Source: Amoebophrya sp. A120 (taxonomy: Eukaryota > Protista > Dinoflagellata). Taken from it: a DNA stretch of 59,014 nt. Each line of letters starts with the position of its first letter. Positions within the stretch are counted from its first letter, which is position 1. Positions 1 to 56,250 of the stretch are shown here, piece after piece. The notes beneath the pieces were generated by a model. The model had not been told where the DNA came from. It saw nothing but the letters and a program-made list of their open reading frames with translations, and did no database searches. The translations under genes and the position numbers were made by a program. The stretch covers positions 1,458,467 through 1,517,480 of the forward strand of contig CAJINV010000004.1 of NCBI GenBank assembly GCA_905178155.1, read 5' to 3'.

Positions 1-252
1 TATCAAATGTAAAAATGTCTGGGTCTGGAAACTTGTGATGCTGGGCGGCGCATCATGATGAGGCTCCAAATGCTGGCTCAGCATGACAAGTTTCTGAGCT
101 CCTCGGTGTTGCCTATTCCGCATGACAAACTGCGCTTCTGCATCACAGAAAAGCGGAGCTCTTGGGTAACGTGCATGACAGATTTAACAGTCATGCCAGA
201 CAAGCATGACAAACATGAATTCTTCCAGACCCAGACATTTTTACATTTGATA
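1..252. mobile_element. Introner family A (TIR TATCAAATGYAAAAATGTCTGGGTCTGGAA)
   Basis: About 30-bp TIRs; left TSD lies outside the window. Confidence 0.9.
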
Positions 253-3200
253 CGACGACCAGCAGTACCACTACGACCTATGAAATGCAAAAATGTCTGG
301 GTCTGGAAGATTGCAACTTGTCATGGTAAATCTGAATCATGCAAAAATCTGTGTTGCATGAGTGCCAAAAGCTGTACACTTTTGACCAAGTTGAAAGGGA
401 GTTTCTCATGCAGGATAGGCATGGCAGAGACCTCGCAGAGTCTGTCATGCCAAGTCCCGCATTCCAGACCTCATGGGTAATGGAAAATCTGCATGACAAG
501 CCTACACTTTTCCAGACCCAGACACTTTTGCATTTGATACGACCACCACAAGTACTATAACCTCAACCAGCACGATCACGACCACTTCTACTCTAACGAC
601 GACTACAACCACGACGAGTACAACCACTGTCAGTACAACCACGACAACAACCTCGACGTCGACAAGCACGACGACCGTTACAACGACTACAGCCACGACC
701 ACGACAATGACCTCGACAACCACGACCGCCACGACAACCACTACAACCGGAACTTCCACGACCACCACCTTTACTACCACTAGCACGGTAACGACGAGCA
801 GCACAACTACGACGACGTCCACTGTGACTACGACGGTAACCTCCACGACGACAACCGTCACCAGCACGACAATTACCAGTACCAGTACAACTACTTCTAC
901 GAGTAGTACTAGTAGTACAACGACGAGTAGTACAACTAGCACGACGACAGAAACCTCGACAACGACAACGACCTCAACAGTCACAACAACCACAACAGTC
1001 ACGACCTCCACGACGACGACGACGTTTACCACAACCGCTACCACGACGTCCACGGTGGCGGCGATTCTCCAAAAGGTCGTGCCGGAGACTCTGACCGCGA
1101 AGAAGGTGAAGGCACGGGTGACTTTGTCCATGACCCTCCCGGTCGGCACAACCGGGGCGGAGCTCCTGCAGAATCCGGAGATCGTGGGCAGCTTCAAGCA
1201 GGGTTTCAGTTGGCAGTACGAAGTGCCGGTCCGTGACGTGGAGATTGTGTCTTTTGACGTCACGCCGATGCCGGCCTCTGGCGGCCAGGGGACGACTCGT
1301 AGAAGAAGTGTGCGAACAAGGATGTTGACCACATCATATCAAATGTAAAAATGTCTGGGTCTGGAAGGGTTGGAGCTTGTGATGCAAACTCTGGAACACA
1401 CAAAAACTTGTATTGCATGAGCGCCAAAAGCTGTCCATTTCTTGGCACGCAAGTAGGAAGTTTCTCATGCGGGAGAGGCATCATGAGGCGTGCTCAAAAG
1501 CTGTGATGCTTTTGCCTGCATCAGACGCCATTTGCGTGATCCGAAATATGCATGACAAATCCCGCAATCTTCCAGACCCAGACACTTTTACATTTGATAC
1601 ATCAACCGCTAGTACAATTTCTCCGCAGACGAAGAAGATCTTCACAGCATCAACTCTTGAACTTTCCGAAACGGAACAAGAAGAAGTTCTCGACCAACAA
1701 GAAGGGCGCAAGATCAACAATTTGATCGACAGGCGAAGATCATTGCAAGGGGCGTCTTCGCAAATTATGCAGGTGATTTGCACGTACGCGATTTTCACAA
1801 ACGATCCTTATCAAATGCAAATATGTCTGGGTCTGGAAGAGTGTAACTTGTCATGCTACATCTGGATCGTGGAAAAATTTGTGTTGCATGATTACCAAAA
1901 GAGGTCCACTTTTGAACAAGTTTAGAGTCAGTTTCTCATGCAGGAAAGGCATGGTAGAGATCTCTCAGAGCCTGTCATGCTAGGCAGTGCATGCCAGACC
2001 GCGTGGGTCATGGAAAACCTGCATGACAAACTTGCATTCTTCCAGACCCAGACACTTTTCCATTGGATAAGCCTGCAGGGATGGCGACGAAGATGGGGAC
2101 CGCGACGGCCGGGTCCATGATGGGGTTCATGACCACCGCGCTCCAGACGGTGACGTCGTTGCCGGGGCTGTCGTTGTATGAAATGCAAAACTATCGTACT
2201 AGTAGAAATTGCATGACAAATATCCTTAGCATGACAAACGGAATTTGTCATGCTGTTTTAGCTTCGGAGGGAGATTTGTCATGCGTAATTGCGATTACTA
2301 CGAGTGCGATTTTTTTGCACGGGATACGTTGAACGGCGTTCTGGCCATGGTGTCCGCGGACTGCAGTACGGTGTTGGATGAGAAGCGGTGTCCGGACGGG
2401 TTGAAGGACGTGTGTGCGCAGGAGTGCTCCTTCCTGCAGTCCGGGGTCACGGTCGCGGAGCCGATCGGCGGGAATCTCGTTCCGGTGGCCGAACCCGCGG
2501 GGCAGGATATGACTTGCTCAAACGTCACAACCTCAAGCGTTACACTAGAATCTGGAATTTGTCTAGCATGATGGGCACGACAGACTCGCACAGCGTTCCA
2601 GCTTTTGCAATACAAATTTCGCCAGAATGTAGTCGGGTTTGGAGCTCCGGAACTTGTCATGCGCAACCCTATGACAGTTGGCTGGATCATGCTTATCATG
2701 CAAGACAAATCTCAGATTCTATTGTAACGTTTGAGATTGTAACACCTGAGCGGGTTATACAGGAGTCCACCAACGTCGACCCCGATGCGGTCTTGATTAG
2801 TTCTTTAGGCGAGAACGCGGGCCAAGACGGCACAGACGAAAATCTAGACGGTTCTGGGTCGGCGGACACAAATCTGAAAGTGCAAGAAACGCAGGCCGCG
2901 GGGCTGGGATCATCGGACGACGTCGGGGGGGAGTTTTGGGTTTTGGTGCTGATCGTCGCCATTCCGGGCGGGTTGCTGGCACTGTACGGGTTTGATGCGG
3001 CATTGTCCAAGTATAGTAGCTGGTACCGAAAAAACTGTACGGAAAGAAGGAAAAAAGCAGCGTTGCTGCCCAGCTACTGGCTATCGACGTGGTCCGACCG
3101 GGGAGGCTCCTCGTCGGCGGAAGACCGCCGGAGAGCGGCGGCAGGCGCAGCGTCCGGAACTCCCGGTCGGCCGACCGCCAACACCACGCGGGCGCGGCGG

Positions 3201-4503
3201 CGCGCGGCCGCCGAGGCGGCGGCGGCCGAGGAGCGCGCTCGGGCGGACAGGGACCGGTTATGCATTGCAAAAATGACTGGGTCTGGAATAAACTTGTGAT
3301 GCTAAAATGTGGATGATGGAAACAGCTCCGAATGCAACACAGCATGACAACTTTTCAGAACACTTTCTCATAGGAAATCCGCATGAGAAACTGCGTTTTT
3401 GCATGTACAAAAGAGGCTGCGACTTTTGTTGGCTATGCAATACAGATTTATTCCCAGGTGTGGAGAGCTAGCATGACAACTTGCTACCTTCGAGACCCAG
3501 ACACTTTTGCATTTGATACCGCTTCGAGATGAACGACAGCGAACAGTTATCGAGTCCGCGGTCAACTTTGTCAAGCGGAAGTGCAAGCGGCAGTGGCGGT
3601 GGTCCGCCGCCGCGGTTGGTCGTGACCGGGCAGCCGGTCATCGGTCCGGGCAGCGTGAGCCAGATGAACAGCCAGAATTACATCCCAACTGGGTACATCA
3701 AAGAGCAGAATGGGCAATTTTCACCAGGAGTAACAACAACGTCCTCCCATGGCGTTCCGATTTTCACGGCCCAGGGGGTCCCGGCCCGCGTGTACCACCC
3801 AGGGATGGGTCCGCCGCCGGTGGCGCCCCAGCCCGGACCGGCGCCCGGGGACGGTCAGCGACCCGACTTCGCGGGCCGGCGGCTGCGGCAGGCCGCCACC
3901 ACGGAGGCCGCCAATGATCGGATGAACAACCGGCCCAACACGAGCTCGCGTCGCTACTACCACGCCACGTTTCTGGAGCCGGGGGACGAATTTGACCCGT
4001 TTGAGTCCGTGCGGGTGGAGGGGCGGTGGCGGGATTTGCAGAACGAAAAAACGAGAACTTCTGCTGCGGCAGTGGATCAACAGCAGCAGCAAGAACAGCA
4101 GCAGCGGCAGCAGAACAACACTTCTATGAACGACGACATAGAAAACTTAAACGACGAAGATTTGAACAGCGTGAATGGTACTCCGGAATCGCAGTGGAGC
4201 GAAGACACGACAGAGATGTTGCATTTTGCGCAGCAATCGTCCAACCCCGGGAGGGGAGGAGGAGGGACTGCTACCAGTGGTGCAACAGGAACTTCTTCGT
4301 CTGGCGTTGGTGGTCCTTCGCCTCCTTCCTCTAGTACGGGGATGAATTCTAACCCGCACAGCAGAAGAGATCCCGCGCGACGTACTACGCCCGGCAGTAG
4401 AAGTACTAGAGCAGCAACTAATAGTAGTACCCACGACCCGATGACTCCCCCTGACTCCCCCACGCCAAATGGAGGCAACCGCCCAGGTCCTAATTTTGTT
4501 TGA
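1..4503 (+). CDS. Thr/Ser-rich mucin-like single-pass membrane protein, 5'-partial, interrupted by 7 introners
   Basis: Poly-Thr tract 539-1060, hydrophobic segment FWVLVLIVAIPGGLLALYGF near 2935-2995, low-complexity tail to stop at 4503. Frame is continuous after removing each element plus one 5-nt repeat (TTS|TAS, NDP|AGM, LSL|NGV, GQE|STN, DRF|EMN). Confidence 0.8.
279..539. mobile_element. Introner family A
   Basis: TIRs, TSD CGACC/CGACC. Confidence 0.92.
1337..1599. mobile_element. Introner family A
   Basis: TIRs, TSD CATCA/CATCA. Confidence 0.92.
1809..2069. mobile_element. Introner family A
   Basis: TIRs, TSD ATCCT/AGCCT. Confidence 0.9.
2177..2326. mobile_element. Introner family G (TATG-ATGCAAAA-ATCGTA)
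   Basis: Imperfect TIRs, TSD CGTTG/CGTTG, frame restored. Confidence 0.85.
2508..2759. mobile_element. Introner family C (TATGACTTGCTCA...GAGCGGGTTATA)
   Basis: About 50-bp imperfect TIRs, TSD CAGGA/CAGGA. Confidence 0.9.
3259..3518. mobile_element. Introner family A
   Basis: TIRs, TSD CCGGT/CCGCT. Confidence 0.88.
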
Positions 4504-5585
4504 AATGGACGCGCAAAAATTCGACAATAGTCATTGAACGAATTTACACGCACAAGCTGCAAGTACAAGTACGTATCTACGTATACAAGTGTAAAGCTAG
4601 ATGCAGGTACTGACGACGAAGAGGGCACTAGCGGTGAAACTCGAAACGTCCTCTCAGAGAAGGCAATCATCTACCCCATTTTCCTTCCCGAACTCTGTTT
4701 CGTTTGCGCATGATCCTCGCCTACGCACGCTAAGAAGTACATAGAAGCAGTGAAATGAAATTTTGAAGTAGAGTAACCACAGATAGTACGAAGACCTGCG
4801 GATAGATTCGTAGTGGATAAGGATGTAAAATGCACAGGTGTAGGTTGTTTTGCTGGGCTTGAAAAAAGCTCGACAAAGACAAAGCTTTCTCCTCAACTGT
4901 AGGCAAAATCTTACAGGAGCGCCTTCTGCTGCGGCTCGGAATGAGGAAGTGCTTACGTTCACTGCAGGATCGCATCAGGAAAGTCAAATCCTTACGAAGC
5001 TAGACTCGTGTCGTTCTTTCGTGGCATGAACAAAACAGGAAGACTTTATGGTTGTTCGTACAGTGAAAGGATCGTGAAAAAACAAAAGGATAGTGTAGTG
5101 ACACGTTCAGCGTATTCTTGCGTATTTTTCATCGTCTGCTGGAGAAGATATTGGGCGTCGTGCGAATACTAGTGGATGAATGAAACAGGTCGTGCTCCTG
5201 TTGAATTACGTACTTGACGTCGTGATGATGCTCGTAGTACATCAAGAAAAAGTAGCTAAAAGAGATATGCGGGACATTGTAAAGGTGTCCCCCCAAGAAC
5301 TCCTTTGTCGGAATAAGAAGTAGATTCGCTGATGGTGCAAGATGAACAAATGCAAGTGTTTACTCACTGCCTTCGTAGAAAGAAAACTTTTTGCTCCATC
5401 GTCTCTTCTCTCGGATTGGCCGTGCAGGATTTCAGCTCAAAAGTAGGGAAAAACGTGCGTCTTGCGGATTTTAGTTTTACTCTACGAATTTACTGAATAA
5501 TAACAGTTCCCAAATTTTTGTTGTTTTTTTTCCTCGGTCTGTTCTGCGAAGGGCACGACACAACATACAACTAGTCAGGTTGATT

Positions 5586-5864
5586 TATCCTGAGTAAAAA
5601 CGTACCCACGCCAGAGTTGTAATGCAGATCTGCAAAGACAGGAAGACTCGTAATGCGCATCCGCATGAGAGCCATTTCCAGTCGTGTTTTGGAATTTGTG
5701 ATGCTGTGAACAGGAAGAGCAGATGAATCTGTGACGCGGCTGCACTTGCTAACCTGCACTACGCTGCATAGTGCAACTTGTCATGCGTGACTCACAAGAC
5801 TCCTAGGTTTGTGTTGCAAAATCCCCATGCTGGCTATGGTGTGGGTACGTTTTTACTCAGGATA
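5586..5864. mobile_element. Family B element (TIR TATCCTGAGTAAAAACGTACCCAC), apparently non-coding location
   Basis: Perfect 24-bp TIR, TSD TGATT/TGATT; reverse complement of the copy at 51766-52044. Confidence 0.92.
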
Positions 5865-6604
5865 TGATTTAGTAGGGAATCAGTTAGCAACACCACCTAA
5901 TCATCAAGGGTTCGAAAACAAAAGGACCAAGATGTGGAAAAAAGTCGCCATTGTCGCCGTCGTCAACTTATCCACTGCAAACATGTCAGGTTCAGTTGAG
6001 TAGCACGCATCGTCACTATGCACAAGCAGTCTCTACAATACTGGAAACATGGCATGAAATTTTTGGTAACAACGCACAACCAACAAAAGGAGAAACTCTC
6101 GGCCATTTATTCAGGATCGATACTGTTACTGATGCTGATGCGTTTGCAGTTGATATGTCGGGGGGGGGGTGCCTCCGAGGTGCAGCGGAAAAAGAAGAAG
6201 CAGGAAGCTGCGACTCGTGTTCAGCGCGGCAGGCTCTCGCTTTCGTCTCGGAAGGCCTACATACCCGAAGATGAGAGAAATATCCTTCAAACGTAACACT
6301 GGCCCACCACAAAGTCAAGACGAAGAGATGTGTTCGATTAGGTGTAGAAGTTCAAGCTTTATGCAGATGCCACAACTTTTACTTTTAGCACCGAACCCGA
6401 ACCCGAAGTGAACAGCCAGCCCTGATTGGCAAGCACGATCGCATCATAAAGCAACTCGGTCGATGTGAATACAGCATGACAAACTTGCAAATGCAAACCC
6501 AATGTATCTACAAAACTACACTCTTTGTCGATATCGCCGGAGACGCACAGCACACACGCTCTGACATGACCAGATCTGCGTGACAAACTTCCTTTGATTT
6601 TGCG

Positions 6605-7174
6605 GTGAGGAGGTTGATTGCAAACGGTATAAACAACGTTGGGTGTGTGGCGAGCGACTGGATGAGAAAGCACTGCTTCACGACTGTGTGGGTGGACGAT
6701 CATCCGTGGCCGCTACCGGGTCGCCACCAGGAGTTTGCTGTGTTGTCCAATTCTCCTGCCTGGAACCCCATGTGTGATCGCTGCTTGCTCGATGATGGGT
6801 CGGCACTGCGGTGCAGCAAGAAAGTGGCCAGTCCCGGGCAATGTGACAAAATCCGGACTACTTCTGCAAACACACCGACAACAGAATGGAGCATTCGGTG
6901 CTGTCCTATCACAAAAAACAACATCACCATCACGCAAGAGAATTCGTATTCAAAAAGCATTTGCAGCATGTGCCGACTTGATGTTGCGGACAAAAGCAAA
7001 ACAAAAGTGCTAGATTCAATTTCCAGGCACTTTATTTCGAAAGTACTTTCACCAATGTTAAAGGGCCTTCACCGGGATGCGGTGGTGAGCCTGCTTATGC
7101 CCGCGGCTGCTTATGTCCATTTCCAATTCCAAGATCTGTTTTGCTCAGCAACGCCGCGACACAAAAGATCCTAG
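6605..7174 (+). CDS. Possible Cys-rich hypothetical ORF or relic
   Basis: 189 aa with several CxxC motifs, non-ATG start; no recognisable family. Confidence 0.2.
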   Translation: MRRLIANGINNVGCVASDWMRKHCFTTVWVDDHPWPLPGRHQEFAVLSNSPAWNPMCDRCLLDDGSALRCSKKVASPGQCDKIRTTSANTPTTEWSIRCCPITKNNITITQENSYSKSICSMCRLDVADKSKTKVLDSISRHFISKVLSPMLKGLHRDAVVSLLMPAAAYVHFQFQDLFCSATPRHKRS

Positions 7175-8639
7175 AGATCCGATACTTGAATTCGTAAAAA
7201 AAGTATGGTAGCTTTTTATGTAACTCTATTCCACGAATGAAAATCATTCTGCAATTGCAAATCTTAACTTTTCACTTTAATGTCGGCCGGCCCTCAGCTC
7301 AGCGAAACGGTTCAGCTGCATATGGTCTGGTGGTGATGTTTTTCATTGGATATGTAAGTGGCACGATCCCGTGCTTCCATCAGACGCAGTCACCAGAAGT
7401 GACTGAACCGGCGAGGGTGCATTCTTCAGAATTGATCGGGGAAGGGGTCCTGTTTCGCGATCACAGAGAAAGAAGTCGAAGCTAGAAGACCCGATCAATC
7501 TGAGTGTTTTTTTTTCCTGATTTCTCTCAATCACGTGCATCATGTGGTTCCGCTTTCTTTCTGCAGAAACATCAAGAAGGTACTTCAAATCCGTGCAAGT
7601 CTTTTTTTGAATTTCAACGTTAATGTTTCCCTTTCAATATTCTTTAAACTGTGAATCGGAACTGTAGATAACAGGACCGAGAAGAGTTCAAACATGCTGT
7701 ACTGAGAGCGACCTCTATACGAGATAGCTTCCTGTTCTTTTCCCGGTGTAATCAGGAAGTGCAGTTTTTGTTTTCCGCGTACCCTCTAGACACAAACTCT
7801 TTCTGAGTCGGAGGATATTACACATGTTTGAATATTATCCGCAGGAGGGCCGCAAGGTGGGGCCTCAGCGATGGGGTGGTCATGATACAAATACAAAATT
7901 TCAAGCACAGCGACAGGAAGCAAGTCGTAGTGCAAAGTTTGCAATACATGTTGCTGGACCTCCTTCATGACGAGGAAAACACGTTAAAACATTTGATTTT
8001 CTTCTTTCTCTTCGATCGTTTTTATTTCAGTACACTTTTCATCTTTTTAACAGCTACGCATATTTTAATCGTTTTACTTCCGCATGTTTTACTTCCGCTC
8101 ACGTTAATCAAGTTCCACTCACTTCCCTCCGGGATTTTGCAAGACAACCTTTTTTTGACTTTCCACATTCAATATCAATTTCAACTAGTTACATACTTTC
8201 ACATGTTCTTTTCATCTCACAACGGCTCCACACAATGTATTGCCCGCTCTGAACAACTATTTTTGCAGCTACCCACCTGCCCGAAGATATCTGTAGAACT
8301 TGCTCGACCCGCTGTCAGTTTGGACTCACACGTCATTGGGAAAAATAAAAGCTCATTAGAACAAATAAAGTTAATTGCAAGAATCATGTGACAACTACCA
8401 AAACCAGACCTGCATATAGATTCATGTATCCCGTCGAATTTGTCGCATCCCGACCGATTTGTGCTTTTTCACAACGTCTTTTCATGGGAATAAAAGCAAA
8501 AACCACGGAACCTCGGTCGTTGGGCCACCAGCTGGACGAGGAGACGTATGAACAATCGAAAAGACCCCAAGTCGCCTCGATACCCCAGCCCCAAGTTGCT
8601 CCAAGTCCTCCATGCAAACCCAAACGCATAGTCATAAAA

Positions 8640-8770
8640 TTACACATAGAAAAAAACAAAAAAAATTACATATAGAAAAAAACAAAAAAAATTACATATA
8701 GAAAAAAACAAAAAAAATTACATATGGAAAAACACAAAAAAACTGCATGTGTAAAAACACAAAAAAAAAT
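8640..8770. repeat. 26-bp A-rich tandem repeat
   Basis: TTACATATAGAAAAAAACAAAAAAAA about 4 times, decaying. Confidence 0.8.
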
Positions 8771-35112: not shown

Positions 35113-35360
35113 GCATGAGCGCGCAAAATGCAAAGCCGGACAACCTAAGCCATGGCAATGCTTTTCAATCTTGCCAAATTTCGGCAATTTCTTTTGCCGA
35201 AATTCGCCAAAACTTCGGCAAAGAGTTGGCTCTCGGCGAAGTTTTTATTTGCAAAACCAGGCAGACACTGAACTAAAGCAAAATTTTTTTTTTTTAAGTT
35301 GGCGCTTTGCGCTTCATGGCCTAGGTTGCCCGGTTTTCGTTGTATTTTGCGCGTTCGCAT
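35113..35360. repeat. Imperfect inverted repeat of about 45 bp (MITE-like)
   Basis: GCGCGCAAAATGCAAAGCCGGACAACCTAAGCCATG vs CATGGCCTAGGTTGCCCGG...TGTATTTTGCGCG. Confidence 0.55.
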
Positions 35361-35762: not shown

Positions 35763-35903
35763 TTTCTCGCCAGTTCGAACCCCTCCAAGAGGAAGAAACT
35801 TACTTTTCTCGCCAGTTCGAACCCCTCCAAGGGGAAGAAGCTTACTTTTCTCGCCAGTTCGAACCCCCCCAAGAGGAAGAAGCTTACTTCTCTCGTCAGT
35901 TCG
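35763..35903. repeat. 42-bp tandem repeat, about 3.3 copies
   Basis: TTTCTCGCCAGTTCGAACCCCTCCAAGAGGAAGAARCTTACT at 35763, 35805, 35847. Confidence 0.9.
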
Positions 35904-43700: not shown

Positions 43701-46700
43701 CTGATGGACCGGGGCACTGGGATCTACCGCGACTACGATCCTTCCGAGCTGAAGGAGCAGCCGGAGTTCCAGCTAATCGACACGCAGGGCCGGGCGGTCA
43801 CCGAGCCCGCCGAACACATGCTGCAGGAGATACGCGCTATCCTCTGGGGGAAAATAAAGTATTGTTGAAGGCGCCGGCGTATACATGATGCGTACAAGAA
43901 TTGCAAGAGCGTACTTGGCCTTTACTGATGCAGCAGCGCATCAGGCGACAAGGCACAGCACTGTCTACATCATTTTGGATGTTGGAAAACAGTTCTGCGG
44001 CTAGATTTGGCTCTCTTGTGTGCGCGGCGGGAAGAAGGTACAACATTTTTTACACTGCATACACCCGATGCGATCAAAATTCCGTTTTCGCCGAAGAATA
44101 GTGGCCGCCACAATCATTCTCATCATCGTGGGTTACGCTGGGCTCAGGTACAGTTCTATGAATCGATTTTTTTATTCGGTCGCTTTTCGTTTTCTCGGCC
44201 ATCCCCAAGGTAGCGAAAAAAAAAGAAGAAAAAAAGGTTCTACGTCTGGTCGTGTTACCGCCAGTTCAAGGTGCTGGAAATGGGTATGCGTCGTAAATAT
44301 GTCTGGGTCGGAAACAAGATTGCAAGATTTGTTGTGCCTGTCTGACATGGCTCGGAGGTTCGTTGTGATGCCTGTGCACGAAGGAAAGCACGCGTCATTC
44401 GTTTTCTGTCATGCAAACTGATGCAATTTCCTGTGCGGAATGCGCAAGGGCAAGACCCAAGGCCGAACTTCTTATGCTTCGCTGCCTTTAGCACGCGCTC
44501 ATCTTCATTCACGTCCTTGTACTTATTGAAAGTGTCCAGACCCGGACATATTTGCGGTTGATAGTGTGTGTGCTGTCAGACAAGAAGTTCCCCATGACGG
44601 CGGCGGAAATGAAAGAAGTACTTACTTACGAGGTTTTCACTGTTTTGAGTAGTTGAAAAAATCCACTTCCACAAGAAAACCACGAGGCAACTGTGGTGAG
44701 TGTGAGCATCGTTGTCGTGTGTGGAAAAAACCTTCGAGAAATATATAAACCACACGCAGTATGGAAACGTCAGGTTTGAAATCGTCAAAGTTGAAATAAT
44801 TTGTAATGCATAAAATGCATGACCCGAGGTACGTGCGTTGCAGAGCAGGCAAGTGAGGCCGATTGTAAGCCTGTTTGGGGTTACAGCTCGAGCTGCTAAA
44901 GTAGCATGAGAAAATCGCTCTTCTTTGCCTAAACAGCACGACAAACTGGATTTAAGGGCCGCCAAGATTTGTCATGCGCCACTTGGAAACTGGGTTCCAA
45001 CTGGCATCCATTTGATGCATGACAAATTATTTCAACTTTGTCGATTTCAACTCTGACACATCCACACCCAGCTCCGGCAAGACTGCTCGACCATGACCAC
45101 ACCGGAATGCGTATCCCAGAGAAAAAAGCTGGCAGGGCATGTTTGTAATGCCAAAATAAATACACAGAAAAACTTCTCATGGGTGGCCCTATAGCATGCT
45201 GTTTCGGATATGCAATGCAGATTTTTTGTGTATTTCTTTTTGCATTACAAATATGCCCCTCCCGCTTTTTTCTGTGTGATAATGCGAGCCGAGCGAAGAC
45301 CAAGTCCTGCAGACGTGTATGGCTCCGCCGGTAGGCCAAGCGCGGCCCCATATGCATTGCAAAAGCATCGTACCAGTAGGAATTGCAAATGCAAGTAGTA
45401 TTCTATTATACAAATTAGCTCAGCATGCAATAACAGAGGGAATTTAAGTATTTGTCATGCTTGGAAAAAAGATGATTTGTGGTGCATAACTGGGACACGA
45501 TCACTACAAGAACGATACTCTTGCACTGGATACCCCGGGCGTTCCATCAACTTTGGCACGACTTGCTGGGATTGGACGTGTCCGCGGCCCTGACGCTGCC
45601 CTGCTTCCACGGGGTCTGCAAGCTACGCTCGAAGCTACGCATTGTAAATATCGATCTGTGTCTGGAATAAACTTGTGTTGCTGAAGATACTCGCGCCGCG
45701 GAGTAGTCGCTTGTATGGACGAATAATCGCATGATCACAAGTTTTGCGAGGCTCATTCCGAGATTGATTCGTCATGCGCATAAAAAAGTAGGTTCCGGCG
45801 AGGCAAAAAAGCGAGCGAGACTTCTTTTCATCCATCACAGAAGATGTTGCTGTCCTTGAAATCTTGCATGAGAAATTTACACCCAGATGACTACAGATTC
45901 GCAATGCATATAATCTGGCGGAGTACGATTTTCAGGCTGTTTTGATTGTGGTCGGCCTGATTTTCGGTGCGGTGCTCTACAACGATATCGTCAAGCAGCA
46001 AATGCTATCGGATAGATGCAAAAGTCCTTTTGGTGTCGTTGCATGACAGACTTCCAGTCTTTTACGTCGTTTCTGCATAATGGCACATCCTGCTATGAAC
46101 AAAAACATTTGTACTTTTGCACTGCATAGACCCGTAACAAGCAGCACGAAATGGTGACCGCCATGTCGCCAGGGCACTCGCCCATGCTATCGCACGAAAA
46201 AAGTGTCTTGAGCGTGTGATCATGCGGGGGAAGTTAGATCGCACAACAGCATAGAACTTGGAACAGCTCTGGTCTTTACCAAAAAGTTCTTATGCAGTGC
46301 CTGTTTTAAATAACAATGATGATGATCACAGGAGGAGAAAAATCTCTTATTTTTTTTCGTGCGATACCGAAACCGAATGCAGCAATCTATGGTGGTCAAT
46401 TCCTACGGCGGCGGTCTTATCCTTTATAAAAACGTCCCCACCTCCCCATGGTCAAGTCGGAACCTTTGCGAACACAAATCCAGAAGTTTTGGGAGTCACG
46501 CATGACAAGTTTTGCACTGTAATACTGTAGTGCAGGATAGCAAGAAAAGCCGCATCACAAATCCATCCCCTTTTCCTGTTTGCAGAATTACAAATTTCGA
46601 AACTGCACGACGGACGAGAGACGCCACTTGTGTGGATGCGCACTAGCAACGTTCCTGTGCGCCGTGGAAATCTGCATGACACCTACTATGGTCGTGTGGG

Positions 46701-47208
46701 GACGTCTTTACACAGGAGACGCCTGGACGGCTACGGTGGCTATGCGGGTGGTCCAGAGACGTCCAAGACCAATCAGAAAGTGGTTTACAGTCCCGTGCTA
46801 TCCAAGGAAAAAAATGTGCTTTTATTTCAACATTCCCTGAGTTTGACTTTGATGCATGATTTTTTGCACGGCGTGGAATATTAATCTCCGGTGTTTCCAC
46901 GCCCATGCGGCAGGTTGGTTTAACGCGACTGAGGACGTCGATTAGGCGTGGTCATGATTCACCTGATCCTCTCAGCTTTCCGCTCACAGTGCCTCGACGC
47001 ACTGTGTCTTTTTTTGTGGCAGATGTGAGTAGTAGAGATTGTTTTCGGTAGAAAAGAAACCAACTTGTGGACTAGTAAAGTAAGGACATAAAGAAATACA
47101 TGCAGTCTTTTCCTTCGATAATCTCTACAGCAGCAGATGGCCGCTGCGCAACGGAACCCAGGGAGCACACCATTTTTGCCGCCCGCGGGGGGTGGGGCGT
47201 ACAACTGA
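40786..47208 (+). CDS. Multi-pass membrane protein with probable C2 domain, about 16 introners plus 2-3 GT-AG introns (43237-43348, 44148-44236)
   Basis: Signal-like N-terminus, TM VLMLVIVVLLGILAF, C2-like LKISNIRAGDL...DFYLMCE...ITFPEELVLRI...VRFVVKEENFFGSEEVAELVI, two further TM segments. Junction at 44618-44745 is unresolved. Confidence 0.72.
40918..41182. mobile_element. Introner family A
   Basis: TSD TCGTC/TCGTC. Confidence 0.92.
41233..41509. mobile_element. Introner family I (old, starts TGT)
   Basis: Imperfect TIR; RVI|FLF in frame. Confidence 0.7.
41614..41934. mobile_element. Introner family D
   Basis: TSD GGTCG/GGTCG. Confidence 0.9.
42142..42399. mobile_element. Introner family A
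   Basis: TSD GGTGA/GGTGA. Confidence 0.92.
42502..42756. mobile_element. Introner family C
   Basis: TSD TCGGA/TCGGA. Confidence 0.9.
42795..43151. mobile_element. Degenerate introner
   Basis: TSD TCGGA/CCGGA. Confidence 0.72.
43422..43655. mobile_element. Degenerate introner
   Basis: TATCG start, eroded right end, ALR|KVSE in frame. Confidence 0.55.
43838..44061. mobile_element. Degenerate introner
   Basis: TATCC...GCATA, flanks CGCGC/CACCC, frame restored. Confidence 0.65.
44285..44563. mobile_element. Introner family A (diverged)
   Basis: ATGTCTGGGTC/GACCCGGACAT TIR core, flanks ATGGG/GTGTG. Confidence 0.82.
44760..45066. mobile_element. Introner with long distinct TIR
   Basis: GTCAG.TTTGAAATCG.CAAAGTTGAAATAATTTG inverted at both ends; TSD CGCAG/CCCAG. 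Confidence 0.82.
45112..45281. mobile_element. Introner family F
   Basis: TSD ATGCG/ATGCG. Confidence 0.9.
45351..45532. mobile_element. Introner family G
   Basis: TSD CCCCA/CCCCG. Confidence 0.85.
45636..45910. mobile_element. Degenerate family A introner
   Basis: Flanks GAAGC/TAATC, frame restored. Confidence 0.72.
46006..46366. mobile_element. Degenerate introner
   Basis: TATCG...CGATA; element+5 restores the frame. Confidence 0.6.
46418..46719. mobile_element. Introner family B (diverged)
   Basis: AAAACGTCCCCA TIR core; flanks GGTCT/CGCCT. Confidence 0.82.
46799..47120. mobile_element. Degenerate introner
   Basis: TATCCAAGGAAAAA...TTTTCCTTCGATA; frame restored to stop at 47208. Confidence 0.68.
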
Positions 47209-48287
47209 GGATGATCGTAAGTCTGCTTAGTACTTATCTTATGGACTCGCTTCAACAAGAATAAAAGAAGATTACATTACGAGCGTGTCAGTATATAATG
47301 AAAGTTCCACCTGTCTGAATAAACCGCCAACACACTGGACTCCCGATTGCAATTTCGTTGCTGCGGGAGCAGCGCTGCACATTTTCCACCAAACCGTCAG
47401 AGGAGTGCACTAAAGCGTCCCAGTTTCAACAGCTTCGATTTCCAGTAGCTGTGGCCGACGTAATACTTTTGCTCCTCTACTACTTACAAGAACGGCAGTT
47501 GTCACACAGGACTACGACATCGAATGCTTTGCAAGATTTTTTAGACAGTGGCGGTCAAGTAAGTAGAAGACGCGACTTAGGCGGGGGCATGAGCGAAACG
47601 AGAGTGGTCTTCAGATGAAACGGAACAAAAAATGCGTACAACATTTTGTCCACCGCGACCTCCAGCTCCAGCAGCAGAGCTGTTGAACTTGTTGATCAGC
47701 ATGTTCGAGGATTTGGGCATTTGAGCAGGCTCAACAAATGAAACCGGATGCACTTGATTGCCGTTGAATATACTTTCATCTTTGCATTGAATTCATCGGC
47801 AGAAAAGGAAAGAGCGAGGGTGAGAAGATCAAGGCAAAATAATGACATCAAACAGCTATCCTGCAAGAAACGGGATATTGATTTGTTGCGTTTCTGTTGT
47901 GATATACCCCCTAAATAAGGAGGAAAGTGCGTGCTGTGGACGAGCGCCGGGGCTTTACTGCTGTAGTTGCGGTGGATGCAGCGGTTGATGCACAGCTTGG
48001 AAGATGTGCATCTTATTGGTCGTTGTTCTTCAAAAAGGCATGAGATCTAAGTAGATGGATAGATGGTTCTTAAAGGAGGAGGAGCGAAGCCATCGTCGTT
48101 TCTTATCTTTGAAGTGACTTTGCTGTGTCCTTTTGGCCGGGGCGGCCGCTGCTTCTCTGAAACAGTTTCTAAATTGTTTTCCGTCGGAACAAAGAAGATT
48201 CTGTCGTGAGTTGTGATACTCATATTGGGACAAAAGAAAAAGTAAGTGGCCTGACCACTAACGCCTGGTCACCAAAAAGTTTTAAAC

Positions 48288-51200
48288 ATGAGCTCGCGAG
48301 GAGGTACCGTGTCAGGAGGTGTTGGGGAAGCTGGTAAGGGCACTTCTGGCGCGGGTGGGAGTAATTACACCGCCCCAACGGGGCCAGCAGACGCGACCAC
48401 GACGATGCCAGCGATTGTCGTGCCGTTGCAGACCGTTGCAGTTATCGGGAGGGGGAAACAACGAGGAGCATAACTACAACCCATTGTCTTCAACTACACT
48501 TTTTCGTGTGAGTAAGCGCATGGATTTATTTTTTTGCATTCCAAAAAGTTTTTGTTTTGCAAAAATTTTTGCTTCCGTTTTCCTCAAGACAAACACAAGT
48601 ATACTTTCACCTTCCCGGTGATTGCTTTCCCGCGCTGGAAGCGTAGCCACGACAGATTAATAGAAAGTGACTATTGTAAAGACGATCACTGCGGGAATTG
48701 CACTTGGGTGCTTTAGAAATTTGTTTTTCCCCCATGATAACTGCAACCGACCACCAGCAGGATCAGCATTCCAGTGCGCAACATCATGCAGTCGGTTGCT
48801 CTGGTGCTGAAGCAGACAGGGCTACCCCTTCATCCTTCGCTTCCAACAGGACACCAACCGCGTCCTCAAACCCTGCCGCCAGCTCCTCTGCGTCTGCGAG
48901 AAGCAGTGGGAAGGCCACGAAGAGCAAGAGCAAAACGAAAACGGGGGCGAACAAGGTTTCTGTCAGCGCTTCGGAGGTGGTCGTTTTGGACGAGCCTTTA
49001 CGGCAGTCGGAACAAGCAGGTGGTGCGTCGTCCTCGAGGAGTGGCATTGCAACAGGAGGAGGACACCGCAATAAAGCTGCAGCCGGCAGCACCAGCACGA
49101 CGGGGGCACCGCAACAGCACAGTACTAGTGGCAGCAACAACCAGCTGGTTCCTGTGGCAGACCAGCAACAGCTGGAACTACACGCGACGCGCAGCAGTTC
49201 GTCCAGTTCGGGCGGCGCGCGGGGCAAGCCGAGCTCCTCATCATCAGCTTCCTCATCTACCAACGCAGCCGCGCAAATGAATTACCAGCAGTTGGTATGA
49301 TCGTGTGGGAAACATAAAGTGTGTCAATGCCCAGACAGTGCAAGAACATGTTATGGTTTATTGTTCGGACTGGCAGCATGTTGGCAAGTTCATTCTGCAT
49401 GATGACAGAGAAATATTAAGCCTGGCCTGTCTAGCTAGTAGAGTCAAAACGGATGATGTGAAAAAAGAGGACTTCAACATGGCTGTCCGGTATGACAAGT
49501 GTGAAGATGCTGTTGCATGATCATGCTAGTTCGCATTGCAACACCCTTTTTTTCGTTCGGACACTTGGAAACGTTGCACCAGCTTCGCATGGATCAGGAC
49601 ATTTTAGCGAGAGGATTGACCGAACTCGAGGACCAGTTGCACCACCGACTTTCCGATCTTGCTGAAGAAACGGAGCGGAACGCGAACTACCACAAGGCTC
49701 TGGAGAAAGCGGTGCAGCAGTTTGGGCAGCGGCTCCACCAGAGCAGTACTTCTATTGCGAACGGTAGTTGTAGTACTTCTTCTTCGGCGACAGCACAGCA
49801 TCAGTTGGACTACAGCAGCAAGCATGCCCAACACCTGGAGCACCTGGAGCAAATGTGCCAACAAACCGTGGCCGACCAGGACCATTTGCACGCGCAGATG
49901 CAACAGTTTGCCGACGAACAAGACCGCAAGTACGACCAGCTGTCCCTGCAGCTACAGCACGTCGTGCAGGAGCAGCGGCAGCTGCAGGAGCAGCTCGCGG
50001 CGGCGGTACTTGCGGCGCAAGGAGCTCCGGCGGCGGTGCACCAGAACCGCGACCTCGGGGACGTTGACCAAAAGTTTTTGGGGACGAGCAGCGGCTCCTC
50101 CGCAGAGATAAAAGAGAAAGAAGCACACCTAGTACTACGCTCGGAGGAGCCCGAGCAGGAAAGTAGAAATCAAGGAGAGCATGAAGCAGCAGCTGCTAGT
50201 ACTATCGGCCACGAGAAGCGTATTGTGGATCTGGAAAAGCAAGTAGCCGCGATGTCGGAACTCTGCCAAACGGTACTGCAAACGATGTCGCTATCAACTG
50301 TAAAAATGTCTGGGTCTGGAAGAATTCATGTCTGTCATGCTTGTCTGGCATGACTCTTAAATCTGTCATGCACGTTACCCAAGAGCTCCGTTTTTCTGTG
50401 ATGCAGAGCCGCAGTTTGTCATGCAGAATAGGCAACACCTAGGAGCTCAGAAACTTGTCATGCTGAGCCAGTATTCGTAGCCTCATCATGAGACGCCACC
50501 CAGCATCACAAGTTTCCAGACCCAGACATTTTTATTTTTGATAATCGCAGCAGATGCGCGATTTGCAGGGCAAGTGGAAGAAGCGCGACCAGACGTTTGA
50601 CCTGCGGCTACATATGCATTGCAAATATAATTTATGTCTGGAGGTGGAGATTTGTGATGCTGAACTGTGGATGATGAAAACACTATCGTGATCGTGAATT
50701 ATGCAGACAAGCATGACAAGTTTGCAGAACGTTTTCTCCTACGCAGTCCGCATGAGATGACACTGCGTTTTCCTATGGCGACTTTTGTCGGTCCTGCAAT
50801 ACAGATTTCACACCAAAAATGTACGACCAGCATTTTTACAAGTTCCAACTTTATTCCAGACCCAGACATATTGTTTGCATTTGATGCTGTAGGAGTTCGC
50901 GCAAAAGGTCGAAACCATAGAGACCACGGTAGCGACGTCTTCGGACGTTCTTTTCCGCCAAGGCGATATTAACACTCTCGGTAAACAACAGCCACGAGGA
51001 CCCGGTGAAGAGCCAGATCGCTCCGCGGAATTGGTAAGGCCAGGGTCATCATCCGCTGCTGCGGCTGCTTCAAGTAAAAACACCGAGCAGGTCACCATGG
51101 TTTCTCCTTCCTCGGACCTACAGAAGGTAGAACACGGGTTGCGGGATGAGCTCTCGCACGTTCATGCGGACGTGCAGGAAAAAATTCAGCGGTTGCAGCA

Positions 51201-54200
51201 GCACATGAACAAGCTGGACCAGAATAGCCGCAGCTCCCTGCTGCAGCTGAGTGAGATGTGCGACCAGAGCATTCGTCGGGCCGTGGAAAAAGTGGTGGCC
51301 ACCGAAGTGGAGCCGTGGCGCAAGCAGCTCGGAGAGAAAACCCAATTCGATCTAGACCGTTTTGGGGACCTGGAGTGCCGTGTGCTGCAGGTAGAAAAGT
51401 ACGCAAGGAAAAAACTACTGCATCAGTGTAAGTACGTTGGTCTGTGTTCTTGCAGAGGACGATGCATAACGCCTACACTCAGCATGCTTGATGTGCGCCG
51501 TCACAGTCAGGCTAAGGCTATTTGATTTTCCTATGTTTTTTTTCTCTTTTTTTCACACGCTCACCACTCATGACAGGTCACGCGAAACAAGACATTTGTG
51601 ATGCTGCTGATCCAAAAAAATCAAAAAAGCTTTGTATTGCTTCCGCTAAGACAGTTTTTTTTTCCGGTATGAAAACAAAGTTACGTGCACTGGCGCCGTT
51701 GGCAAGACCGACGTGGAGGCGAGCACAACTAGAGAGGCAGCTGCCAGCACCTCCACAAGGGCAACTATCCTGAGTAAAAACGTACCCACACCAGAGTCAG
51801 GATGGGGATTTTGCAACACAAGCCTAAGAGTTTTGTGAGTCACGCATGACAAGTTGCACTCTGCAGTGTAGTGCAGGTTAGCAAGTGCAGCCGCATCACA
51901 GATTCATCTGCTCATCCTGTTCACAGCATCACAAACTCCAAAACACGACTGGAATTGGCTCTCATGGGGATGCGCATTACAAGTCTTCCTGTCTTTGCAA
52001 ATCTGGATTACAACTCTGGTGTGGGTACGTTTTTACTCAGGATAGCAACTTCACTTCTGCAAGATCAACTCGGCGACTTGGCGAAGCGCTTCCAGCGCCT
52101 GGAAAGGTAGAGAAAATTCGCTAGCTCAGGAACTGGGCGAGCTGCTGGCTTTTTATTGCAGAGTGCTTGCGTCGTGTACATGGTTCTATGTATCATTTTG
52201 AGCATTTTTGTTGCGCAACCTTTTCTGTTTGTTACATTTTTTCAAAACAAGTCCACACAAAAAAAAATCACGCAGCTCCGTGGGCGATTTTCGGTCCTCC
52301 ATGACGGAACCCAGACTAGCCAGATTGGAAGCCGTCCTGCTGCACGGTGGCGGAGCTACAGAAGTGTCGGCCGCATCAGGACCCGTGGGCAGAAAAGATA
52401 AAAGCCTCGAGGAGCGCCGGCCAGGAGGTGGTGTTCCAAGCTCACCCGAAGACCAAGAAGATCTCCCTGCTTGTGCCAGCAGCCCGCCTGGTGCGGGTCG
52501 TGGGGCGACCGCGTCTGTAGCAGACACAACCGGTGGAGGTCACCAACGCCAGAGAGATGTTGAACAAGCTGGCGCTACATCACCGAGCGGCGGTTGTTCA
52601 TCCGCTTCGTCTTTCTCTGTTAAGAGCGGTCGGATTTGGGAGAACAAGCTGAGTCGCTTGGAGCACCGCTTGGTCGCTATTGCAAGGAAAAATCTTCCCT
52701 CCCGGGGTCCCCATGTTGAAAGCGCATTCCTCCGAAAATTTGTCATGGTGAAGATTTGTGACCACAAATTGCGTCTGGCTTGCAAGAAGGCAAGAGCAGA
52801 AAGTCCGCCGCGTTTTTATTTTATGCAGGCGGTTTGTGAAGATGCTGTTGCGGCCTACAGACAAGACGTCTAGCATGCTAAGTGCCTCCGTCAAGTCATT
52901 CCGTTCCAGGCACTGCAGCTGCCTGCAATCCTTTACTGCAAGACACAGCTGCGTTGTGTACCCAAATTCCGCGCCACAAACATTTCTATTTTGATTATGG
53001 GGAGGGGGGACTTTTCATTTTGATGGTCGCGCGTCTGACGGAACTGGAGACCAAATGCGCAGCGTTTTTGGAGAGCGACGACTTCGGGTCTCCGCAAGTG
53101 GAAGATGGTGTAATCGACCAGCAGACTTGTTCCAGAACTGGTTTGAGAATGGGACCAACTTCCACAAATAATGCCGGGGGGTCGCAGCACAGCAAGGTGG
53201 TCAGCCGCCGCGGGCTCGAGCAGCGACTCTCCGCCGTTGAGCAGACGGCCTATGCATTGCAAATATGTCTGGGTCTTCTGGAAACTCGTGATGCAAGTGC
53301 TCGATGGATATGCAAACAAAGCTGCGCGCTGATGTTGCAATACGTGGCCAGGCATTGCAAGTACTTACTAAAGTAGTTTTCGAGCTACTGCTACGTTTAG
53401 CGTGTTCCTCATAGCAAGCTACCTTTTTGCATGCCAGGCAAGATGTTGAGGATGTTCTAGCGCATAAGCATCACAGAATTCCGAACATATGCCAGATGAG
53501 CATAAAGAAAAAGAATAGTCATTTCTTTTCAATAATCTTCCAGATCCAGACATGTTTGAAATCCATACGGCGACGGAGGCGACCAAACGGGCGGAAGCGC
53601 GGCTGCAGGAGAAGGTGCAGACTATGCATGGCAAATGTGTCCTCCTCTGCGTTTGGATATCCGTTTATTCGTTCATTTCTGTGTGGCGACCAGATCTGTA
53701 TTATGTGTTTATACGTGTGCATGAGCAGGAATTATCGCGAGTTATGTTGTCACTCTGCAACGAGCCAGCTTCTTTTTTGTTTTTCATGCGATTATTTACG
53801 AATTGAACTTATATATGCGGTGCAGCAACTACAAAACGCAGTTCTGATGTGGTGCAAAACTCAGCGAATGGAAATGCTTCGCTGTACTATGTTCTGTCCA
53901 AGCCAGCACTATGTTCTGTCCAAGCCAAGACATGTTTGCAGTGGATACAGACTATCAAATGTAAAAATGTCTGGGTCTGGAAGAATGCAACTTGTGACGC
54001 TGCATTTGGATTCCAGAAAAATCTGTGTTGCATGAGTACCAGATGGAATGTAATTTTTGCTACGCGGAGAGGGCATTTGTCATGCGGAATAGGCATCAAG
54101 AAGCTCTCAAAAAATCTGCGATGCTAGGGCATGCATCACAGACATCAGGGCTCATGCAAAACGTGCGTGACAAGTGTCAGAATCTTCCAGACCCAGACAT

Positions 54201-56086
54201 TTTTGCAATGGATACAGACTGCTCTAACGCAAAAGGCCGAGGAGCTCGAAGCAAGAACCAGGGAGGGCCTACAGTACATTCATAGTTTTTTGCGCATGAA
54301 CAAGTAAGAGCTAGACATGAAAGTGAACCAAAACTACAAAATTGTAGAATTGAACGCTTGATGACAAAGCAAGGTGGTACTTGTTGTTTTCTCACCGCTC
54401 AACATCCTCTTCAAATGTGTTTTCGTTCTATATCTTTAGGCACTTAGAGGACGAGTTGCGCGTGTTGCTGGGCTATGAATTGCAAATGTGTCTGGGTCTG
54501 GAAGGATGCCAGATTTGTCGTGCAGGTTTTCCATGACCCATGAGGCCTGGTATGTAAGACATAGCATGACAGATTCTGTGAGTGTTCTATCATGCCTATC
54601 CTGCATGAGAAAAAACCGCCTCTCGATTGGCTCAAAAGTGGACAGCTTTTGGTAATCACGCAACACAGAATCTTACATGATTCCGTGATTAGCATGACAA
54701 CTTGCAGCTTTGTTCCAGACCCAGACTTTTTTGCATTTGATATGGGCGAAAGCGTGCAGGCCGACCTGGAGCGGAGAACTGTGGCATTGATCAGCCAAGC
54801 GGAGCGTCGCATCCTCGAACAGCAGGAAAAGGCACTGGAAGCGACGTTCAAGAAGGCTGAAAATTATAGTTTGGCAACAACAAAAATGAGCGCGCCAAGT
54901 CCGGGAGAAGTGGGGACAGCGGCGACAGAAATGGTCGTCCAACAGGAGGTATCAAATGCAAAAATGTCTGGGTCTGGGAGATTGCGAGATTTGTCATGCT
55001 AGTCTGGCATGACTCTGAGCTCTGTGTTGCATGGCCGCGAAGAGCTCCTCCCCCCTGTCATGCAAAAACGCAGTTTGTCATGCGGAATACGCAACTCAGA
55101 ACCATGAAAAAAACTTGTCATGCTTGGCAGCGCATCATAGTGAGTTCACTATTCCTTTTCTTGCATCACAAGTTTCCAGACCCAGACATATTTGCAATGC
55201 ATAGGAGGAGTTGCAGCGTGACGTGCGCAGTATGGAAACGCGGCTCTATCACAGGGAGAAAAGCATTTTTACATACAGCTGCTAGCATGGGATTGATTTT
55301 GCATGATAGGAGATACAAACCTGCTTCTGGATTTATTGTGTGCCGGTCTATTATAGTTTAAGCATATGATTATCCCAACCTGCTGTAGTTGTACTGTGGG
55401 GCGCTTTTCTCTCTGGGATAGGCTCGAGGATTTGGTCTTGCGCCTGTCCGCGCTGGAAACGCAGGCGATTGCGAGGATAAGCGACTCGGGCATCGCAACT
55501 GGTGGTTCTTTTGCTGCTCCTGCAGCGCCAGAAGTGGATCACGACGCTATGGTGAGGAAAAATCCCCTCTCCCCATAGATAATATTGAAAATTGATGCTT
55601 CTGCAAATCAGTGCTTCTTATTTGTGGTCACAAATCCTGTGTCTGTCTTGATGGAAGAGAGCAAATCCAAAGGGTGCGCCCCATGTTCCATGCGATCTGT
55701 AATGCTTTTGCGCCTCCAACTGCACTCCAGGCTCAGGCCACTGCTATACGAAGAGCCTACACGACGACGACCAAAACGCCCCAACAAAGCAGGCTCAGTG
55801 AGTCTCCGCCTGCAGAAGCTCCTCACTGGTGCGCGTGTACAACAAATCGCGCTGCACAGATTTCGCGTTGACTATGAGCCAGGGGCTGGATTTTTTTATA
55901 TTTCCATAGCGTTCCTTGCGAGCAAAGTCCTCGCTCTTTCCGGAAATGCAATTCCGCCGCCGGCAGTGCGCGAGGTGGCTTCGCGAGTGCAGCAGGACGT
56001 TCTCGCAGAGGTGCAGCTGGTTTTGGGCGACCAGATTCGGCAGCACAGCCGGGACCAGGCAACGCGGGTGGTGCACACACGCATGG
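48288..56086 (+). CDS. Large coiled-coil/low-complexity hypothetical protein, 3'-partial or disrupted; 15 introners plus GT-AG introns 52107-52275 and 54274-54439
   Basis: Heptad-rich exons (LTELEDQLHHRLSDLAEE, LEQRLSAVEQTA) join in frame from ATG 48288 to the interrupted element at 56087. Confidence 0.75.
48443..48739. mobile_element. Degenerate introner
   Basis: TATCGGGAGGGGGAAAC...TTTTTCCCCCATGATA; frame restored. Confidence 0.7.
49296..49563. mobile_element. Degenerate introner
   Basis: TSD GTTGG/CTTGG. Confidence 0.65.
50292..50543. mobile_element. Introner family A (reverse complement of 1-252)
   Basis: TSD GTCGC/ATCGC. Confidence 0.92.
50613..50886. mobile_element. Introner family A (diverged)
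   Basis: Flanks CTACA/CTGTA. Confidence 0.8.
51400..51671. mobile_element. Introner family I (old)
   Basis: Flanks AAAAG/AAAAC, frame restored. Confidence 0.65.
51766..52044. mobile_element. Introner family B
   Basis: Perfect TIR, TSD GCAAC/GCAAC. Confidence 0.93.
52678..53025. mobile_element. Introner family D
   Basis: TSD GTCGC/GTCGC. Confidence 0.87.
53251..53567. mobile_element. Introner family A (diverged)
   Basis: TSD CGGCC/CGGCG. Confidence 0.82.
53623..53947. mobile_element. Old introner, first of a tandem pair
   Basis: TATGCATGGCAAATGTGTC...GACATGTTTGCAGTGGATA, TSD CAGAC/CAGAC. Confidence 0.83.
53953..54214. mobile_element. Young family A introner, second of the tandem pair
   Basis: TSD CAGAC/CAGAC. 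Confidence 0.92.
54474..54742. mobile_element. Introner family A
   Basis: TSD TGGGC/TGGGC. Confidence 0.92.
54950..55203. mobile_element. Introner family A
   Basis: TSD GGAGG/GGAGG. Confidence 0.92.
55247..55420. mobile_element. Introner, family F-like
   Basis: TATCACAGGGAGAAAAGC...GCTTTTCTCTCTGGGATA, TSD GGCTC/GGCTC. Confidence 0.85.
55548..55908. mobile_element. Introner family D (diverged)
   Basis: Flanks diverged; HDA|LASK in frame. Confidence 0.78.
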
Positions 56087-56240
56087 TATGGATTGCAAAT
56101 ATGTCTGGGTCTGGAAACTTGTAATGCTAAAAGTGAATGATAGACGCACTGCAATACGCAGCTATGCATGACAAATTTTTTGGCTGCCATGTGTTCCGTA
56201 TTCCGCATGGTAAACTGCGTTTTTGCATGACAGGAGAAGG
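56087..56240. mobile_element. Left half of a family A introner, interrupted
   Basis: Left TIR plus body similar to 20912-21150; no right TIR in the window. Confidence 0.8.
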
Positions 56241-56250
56241 ATTCGCAGGA

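Follow-up and report, generated by a model that had tools for sequence, protein, structure and literature searches.

The subject of this analysis is a 59,014-nucleotide (nt) stretch of the genome of the dinoflagellate Amoebophrya sp. A120 (contig CAJINV010000004.1, positions 1,458,467 to 1,517,480; hereafter the window), in which protein-coding genes are interrupted by short elements that carry terminal inverted repeats (TIRs) and are flanked by 5-nt direct repeats. Reading of the full window, together with scans for TIRs accompanied by a direct repeat, yielded 73 such elements plus one lacking its right end at 56087..56240; 70 of them lie in coding sequence, in seven genes, all on the plus strand, as are the other introns and catalogued TIR elements placed below. 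A strict scan (ends T[AG]T..A[TC]A, an exact 5-nt repeat and at least 15/25 TIR identity) gave 34 matches in the window against 0-1 in each of 50 dinucleotide shuffles, so the proposal of a first-pass annotation, made from the sequence alone, that about 70 TIR elements with 5-nt repeats interrupt the genes here is borne out. The elements are removed at the RNA level, scarlessly and together with 5 nt, and the intron so defined, N-TAT...ATA-NNNN, extends beyond the TIRs by one base at its 5' end and by four at its 3' end.

The 72 short elements are 123-446 bp long and make up 31.7% of the window, and one further element, with a nested long interspersed nuclear element (LINE), measures 7140 bp; the size range of 150-360 bp given at first was too narrow. 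Left ends are TAT in 70 of the 73 (TAC in two, TGT in one) and right ends ATA in 66 (ATG in four, and ATT, ACA and AGA in one each), so that the formula T[AG]T...A[TC]A holds for the bulk of the ends but not for those in TAC, ATG, ATT or AGA. At TIR positions 11, 12 and 13 an A is present in 54, 60 and 67 of the 73, the common A-run spanning positions 11-15. The 5-nt direct repeat is exact in 36 of 72 elements; 51 show no more than one mismatch, and in 13 only 0-2 bases are shared. Grouping by full-length BLAST within the window gives six multi-member groups (22, 5, 4, 3, 2 and 2 members) and 34 singletons. These families had been thought unrelated, yet all groups share TAT-N7-AAA ends and a subterminal GCAWNACAR motif, 186 of whose 194 window copies fall within elements, a density of 9.9 per kb there against 0.2 per kb elsewhere. 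The motif was considered as a branch point, since its variable centre fits UNA(C), and rejected: 24 of 72 elements and seven of eight GT-AG introns lack it, its distance from the end ranges over 40-357 nt, and it is found in either orientation. It is at least as likely to be a subterminal protein-binding repeat. No bias of the elements in phase or in length modulo three was found, and an Rfam search of the window returned no match.

The phenomenon itself is already known, as the introner elements of Amoebophrya A120 (Farhat 2021). According to the portions of PMC7789003 available (all PMC-numbered papers are cited here from such portions), A120 introners have inverted repeats made up of TAT, seven variable bases and an A-run of at least three A, direct repeats of 3-5 nt that overlap the exon/intron border, a length of about 240 nt, hairpins, RNA-supported non-GT-AG junctions and no internal transposase. 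The TAT ends, A-run and 5-nt repeats seen here fit that description, in line with the first-pass assignment to Amoebophrya-type introners; we therefore identify the elements as Amoebophrya introners, and our best guess is that they are non-autonomous TIR transposon copies of that type. The lengths 148-150, 252-263, 278-279 and 305 found here recur among the A120 families of Dataset sd07 in PMC12130899.

Once each element plus 5 nt, and seven GT-AG introns, are taken out, the frames of all seven host genes are free of stops, as expected from the earlier claim that deleting an element with one repeat restores the frame. The edge of the window truncates a family A element (1..252, left repeat outside the window), which is followed by gene 1 (255..4503), which encodes a Thr-rich membrane protein, has its start outside the window and shows a 923-amino-acid (aa) frame on removal of elements placed by frame only (279-539, 1337-1599, 1809-2069, 2177-2326, 2508-2759 and 3259-3518). 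A family B element at 5586..5864, inverted relative to the four remaining copies of family B, lies 5' of the gene 2 ATG, likely in the 5' untranslated region; gene 2 itself (5932..7410, a 184-aa frame) contains three old elements with decayed repeats (5969-6155, 6360-6631 and 6907-7352). Gene 4 (12178..25730) encodes a SNF2/RING helicase whose 2211-aa frame opens after removal of 26 elements, starting at 12968, 13420, 13870, 15064, 15368, 15729, 16714, 17021, 17389, 17829, 18355, 19529, 19834, 20175, 20567, 20912, 21517, 21816, 22676, 22900, 23206, 23647, 24398, 24761, 25085 and 25451, and of a 214-nt GT-AG intron (22219-22432). Of 5755 candidates, two are homologues of the helicase exon at 23920-24396; the better of them, from Amoebophrya sp. 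AT5.2 (46% over the exon), points to the genus, while A120 or a close relative is suggested by the features of the elements. Judging by the frame, removal of 7145 nt at 27029-34168 restores a 147-aa host gene; this is the old 7140-bp element (27029..34168) with the nested LINE. The EF-hand gene (36994..39390) has five elements placed by frame only (37175-37429, 37501-37763, 37844-38075, 38228-38443 and 39022-39300). Gene 7 (40786..47210, 554 aa) has 16 coding elements and three GT-AG introns, and gene 8 (48288..56085), a coiled-coil-like gene of more than 1137 aa recognised by its stop-free frame only, has elements starting at 48443, 50292, 50613, 51400, 51766, 52678, 53251, 53623, 53953, 54474, 54950, 55247 and 55548 and GT-AG introns at 49295-49597, 52107-52275 and 54274-54439. 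The statement that such introns sit in almost every gene is thus right for these seven hosts, but not for an expressed gene at 9498-11347, which has a GT-AG intron only.

Sequencing runs, from a set of eleven, were compared with the window over 5550-25549 and 42770-47330. Run X1 is read as DNA: its contigs, at a depth of 41-44, run without interruption through nine whole elements and one GT-AG intron, and end inside young elements. One of them, at 5839-8284, retains all three elements of gene 2. Runs X3 and X6 are two samples from one study whose contigs are also without the GT-AG introns and are therefore taken as mRNA-derived; their RNA status is deduced in this way, as none of the eight runs with covering contigs is recorded as RNA. 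A 7486-nt X3 contig is colinear with gene 4, and its four internal spans skip 821, 787, 1314 and 2868 nt, exactly the sums predicted for 22 elements, each with 5 nt, and the 214-nt GT-AG intron. Across 42770-47330 the same 14 joints are present in X3 and X6, three of them at GT-AG introns and 11 at elements, and each of the 11 skips the element plus 5 nt. RNA support thus covers 33 of the 70 coding elements, which the contigs lack exactly, rather than retaining them as would be expected of pseudogenes; the other 37 are placed by frame only, two of these having one contig end each in addition. The prediction of scarless removal therefore held. The same annotation had left the level of excision undecided; the evidence supports RNA, not DNA.

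Excision from DNA in the manner of ciliate internal eliminated sequences, with transcripts read from element-free templates, would suit the TA-like termini and the scarless removal, and rare element-free DNA could escape notice in X1, whose joint table is dominated by repeats. We nevertheless regard it as very unlikely. Ciliate internal eliminated sequences are absent from the transcribed genome, whereas the X1 contigs span nine whole elements gap-free, four of them missing from the X3 contig; in X6, element 43838 is found both retained and spliced (depth 11.9 and 72.1, respectively); and the register of the cut is asymmetric relative to the direction of transcription. Hairpins flanked by direct repeats are also the classic substrate for template switching by reverse transcriptase, and the present elements include strong predicted hairpins (z down to -12.9) between direct repeats, which raises the possibility that the joints are artefacts of this kind and the genes pseudogenes. 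That explanation strikes us as more improbable still: the joints are exact at 46188 and 46799, where the repeats share 1/5 bases, and also where the predicted stem is weak; the joined gene 4 protein is stop-free and colinear across the element sites with its AT5.2 homologue (41.8% identity over 1464 aligned columns); and the element-free form is the dominant one in both X3 and X6.

Where the two copies of a repeat differ, the transcript reveals from which copy each base derives, and the number of left-repeat bases retained can be bounded for each of the 11 element joints in gene 7. In order, these are the introns at 42794..43155 (element 42795-43151; 1-6 bases retained, joint in X3 and X6), 43421..43659 (43422-43655, ATT end; 3-7), 43837..44065 (43838-44061, the weak-stemmed element seen also in retained form in X6; 4-5), 44284..44567 (44285-44563; 4-6), 45111..45285 (45112-45281, whose perfect repeat is uninformative; -1 to 5), 45350..45536 (45351-45532; 0-4, the upper bound of the register), 45635..45914 (45636-45910, TAC start; 4-6), 46005..46132 (46006-46128, at 123 bp the shortest; 4-5), 46187..46370 (46188-46366, CT..GA ends; exactly 4), 46417..46723 (46418-46719, AGA end; 3-5) and 46798..47124 (46799-47120; 4-7). 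The sole value common to all 11 ranges is 4, and the register is therefore fixed, 1 nt before and 4 nt after the TIR. Contig piece ends at 7357, where an X3 piece in gene 2 begins on the base predicted by this register, and at 24391 are consistent with the same value, as are the AT5 residues at junctions 21816, 22676 and 24398. The element joints thus fall neither at nearby GT-AG sites nor, as first supposed, at the TIR borders themselves. The remaining five coding elements of gene 7 (40918-41182, 41233-41509, 41614-41934, 42142-42399 and 42502-42756) are placed by frame only. Gene 7 also holds an element (44760-45066) at the AG of the GT-AG intron 44618..45071; here the duplicated repeat provides a new AG and, as the joint shows, 454 nt leave as one intron.

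A list of what removal ignores follows from this register. All 11 joints have T at +2 and A at +3, and fixed sequence is limited to +2..+4 and -7..-5. The bases at +1, -1 and -2 are free: 20 of 72 introns start with GT, four end with AG and two have both, so the earlier statement that the borders lack GT and AG is correct as regards dependence but not as regards occurrence. Terminal-base statistics were taken over 202 elements, 71 from the window and 131 strand-called from public loci with a family A TIR; an AG end is not above chance among them (20/202, p 0.18), nor do the first and last intron bases covary (chi-square p 0.29). The direct repeat is dispensable for removal, as the exact joints at 46188 and 46799 demonstrate. 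Orientation is likewise immaterial for family A, one family whose TIR is present at 153 loci in public contigs: by a spanning tree it stands in its two orientations within sense transcripts (7 and 15 copies), element 12968 runs antiparallel to both 19529 and 21517, each of the three falling within a removed span, and the family is removed in both orientations.

What kind of machinery reads so little? We lean towards a modified spliceosome that needs neither G at +1 nor AG and removes the elements at the fixed register, a reading supported because every one of the 11 joints has T at +2 and A at +3 and all eight host GT-AG introns examined begin with GTA (four with GTAC), TAC being the variant tolerated at the 5' end of elements (five occurrences there, one at 3' ends). 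The U at +2 is a U2-type feature, whereas a GT or GC start combined with an AG end is found in only 2 of 72. In Table S4 of PMC7789003, nine of nine predominant non-canonical ends in A120 and nine of nine in A25 have T at +2, and that paper reports nearly complete spliceosomal proteins in A120, with U1 small nuclear RNA (snRNA) not detected; for a U2 spliceosome with relaxed requirements there is a precedent in Fritillaria (PMC13326754). Under this reading the TIR would supply N|UA(U/C), a copy of the host GUA 5' splice site relaxed at +1, and the terminal stem, helped by a factor that recognises the TAT-N7-AAA ends, would take over from U1 by holding the two intron ends close to each other. 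The position of the 3' cut would depend on how far it lies from AUA, not on AG; the TIR A-run does yield a U-tract near the intron 3' end. Since the signal is palindromic and 5 nt leave along with the element, no insertion, whichever way round it lies, would alter the protein, and the invasion of genes would be explained in this way.

Several observations weigh against this reading or narrow its base. PMC13326754 states that splicing depends on the terminal first/last base pair, and here the +1/-1 pair is unconstrained, G-G plus A-C accounting for 33/202 against 15.6% expected (p 0.77). No branch-point motif occupies a fixed place, GCAWNACAR, with its two orientations and its absence from 24/72, included. 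Variation in the outermost TIR base, seen at 3' ends (5/73 in the window, 3/131 in the loci) and never at 5' ends, speaks for the spliceosomal reading, but the window catalogue was compiled assuming a T start and its outermost 5' base is biased, so that the unbiased asymmetry comes down to 3 versus 0 in the loci plus 1 versus 0 in the window; moreover, 6/8 of these variants are A-to-G, equally explained by U-G wobble. Base-resolved register comes from one gene (gene 7) plus the two contig piece ends, gene 4 contributing by length sums, and X3 and X6 count as RNA by deduction and within a single study. Finally, no element-bearing gene is covered by raw RNA reads: among the runs of such reads, X9 gave 15, X10 covers the element-free gene only in 5550-25549, and X10 and X11 gave zero on 42770-47330.

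It is possible, if on present evidence somewhat doubtful, that most mRNA introns here leave instead via a second, non-spliceosomal machine that reads the palindromic transposon end. An endonuclease might recognise the end of the TIR helix with its TAT/ATA and, whatever the flanking bases and the orientation, make a staggered cut leaving a 1-nt 5' and a 4-nt 3' overhang, as suspected for euglenid nonconventional introns, after which a ligase would join the exons; any insertion would then vanish from the mRNA. Unconstrained bases at +1, -1 and -2, a symmetric signal removed in both orientations and the undetected U1 snRNA would all be natural on such a scheme, as would a terminal stem closing at +2:-5, which is predicted with a pairing of at least 0.5 in 12 of 18 folded introns; the sole partly retained element (43838, in X6) has a weak predicted stem, an n of 1. 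However, six of the 18 have weak predicted stems and are still removed, five of them base-exactly, and the TIR arms show no bias of G-U over C-A (63 versus 54 in the window, 129 versus 116 in the public loci), so that structure-guided removal, as the first-pass annotation had it, is supported only in part. The cut also reproduces the host U+2/A+3, unneeded by a new nuclease, and no candidate enzyme has been identified.

The comparison with euglenids is close in several respects (PMC11282704): their nonconventional introns have TIR-paired ends, TSD-like repeats (those of a target-site duplication, TSD), no GT-AG and an unpaired overhang longer at the 3' than at the 5' side, +4..+6 pairing with -8..-6, and an origin from miniature inverted-repeat transposable elements has been proposed. 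They differ in that their ends pair from +4/-6 (CAG/CTG) and their junctions are biased to pyrimidine|purine, in contrast to +2/-5, TAT/ATA and free junctions here; for them, exit as circles has been shown. The introns of Fritillaria borealis are likewise transposon-derived and escape GT-AG genome-wide (PMC13326754), but their ends remain biased (AG-AC, AG-AT), near-isosteric terminal pairs could form in at least 55% of them, where the pair is random here, and the U2 spliceosome that processes them has U1 and a duplicated U2AF. As regards Amoebophrya itself, the Fig. 3 legend of PMC7789003 describes splice sites as variable relative to the hairpin and the border as unknown, in contrast to the fixed register found here, and the available text of that paper does not mention orientation independence, dispensable repeats or free terminal bases. 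The legend of Fig. S23 places the inverted repeat "1-5" nt from the splice sites, so the offset may already show there; with that caveat, the fixed register and the list of features that removal ignores are new. A survey of the literature, subscription papers such as Roy et al. 2023 lying outside its scope, found no mechanism of removal, lariats or circles for Amoebophrya.

How the elements move is a separate question. An integrase-like DDE transposase with 5-bp TSDs and TA termini would mobilise them in trans. As the first-pass annotation had noted, no transposase is present in the window, where Pfam matches just one long mobile open reading frame (ORF), that of a LINE reverse transcriptase. 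It had also suggested looking for long elements with the same TIRs that encode one. In 150 public loci with the family A TIR (480 kb, a small part of the genome) there are 287 TIR pairs, almost all below 400 bp; the longer ones, above 450 bp, range over 457-1031 bp, with one doubtful pair of 6197 bp over host exons, and six examined hold no transposase-sized frame. A Pfam search of the 48 ORFs of at least 330 aa from these loci recovered host genes only. Enlarged family A elements of 0.8-1.0 kb are found at L065:4001-5031, L071:4001-4972 and L024:632-1465, that in L065 being a composite with other element families nested inside. PMC7789003 likewise reports no transposase found in A120.

Ginger/TDD transposons have TIRs with a 4-6-bp TSD and termini of the TG..CA type. 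The present elements have TIRs and 5-bp repeats, but their termini are TA..TA, so that the Ginger/TDD-type mobiliser proposed at first agrees with them in part. A similar idea is in print: Gozashti 2025 (PMC12130899) lists an A120 family 38 as Ginger, of about 810 bp, with integrase-related ORFs, a 5-bp TSD and TA/TA termini, and adds that this family has neither homology to known Gingers nor the termini and TSDs expected of them. Its Copia/Gypsy-like ORFs and its length set it apart from the elements here, no such ORF-bearing element being present in the window. A Ginger-like mover for the present families would therefore be an idea already published, and unproven here.

Some loci in the window are unusual. 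The LINE ORF at 27359-33805 (2148 aa, RVT_1), within the old TIR element, is apparently intact and has a (GAT)n tail; introners may be safe landing sites for LINEs. In gene 8, the tandem elements 53623 and 53953 (53623-54214) are accompanied by three copies of CAGAC, the middle one common to both; judged by frame, the exon between them has zero length at the fixed register, and removal would be recursive or joint. Two GT-AG introns, 9951-10101 and 49295-49597, show traces of element anatomy (an internal inverted repeat, a GTATG start), which suggests that old elements can become canonical introns. The first of these is the single intron of the element-free gene at 9498-11347, and 360 raw X10 RNA reads support it; this is the sole gene under such reads (depth about 450), which bear the template-switch adapter at the 5' end and show no sign of a spliced leader among the loose ends listed. 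A dispersed non-TIR repeat lies at 4799-4990 and 8901-9060; X10 reads at 8901-8937 bear a poly(A) tail and run into 4810-like sequence, and a short repeated transcript therefore exists. An intergenic inverted-repeat element at 35117-35356 has 17-nt arms and an inner hairpin but no TAT ends. After the family A element without a right end comes an open frame of 569 aa (56137-57846) with no Pfam match, and palindromic tandem repeats lie at 58450-58883; the frame is probably another mobile insertion.

How more than 60% of Amoebophrya introns are removed without GT-AG has been a standing question since 2021. The fixed register N|TAT...ATA-NNNN leads to testable predictions, namely the position of a lariat 5' end or of a circle junction and the bases that matter in a reporter, and it could guide re-annotation of A120, where ambiguity between the repeats has blurred the splice-site tables in print. 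A spliceosome for which U at +2 suffices, without any terminal pair, would be a notable outcome, and so would a splicing machine of another kind; the removal signal would be a candidate for a scarless, self-erasing insertion tag. For the organism itself, a palindromic, target-independent removal signal would explain how transposons have come to saturate its exons at little cost.

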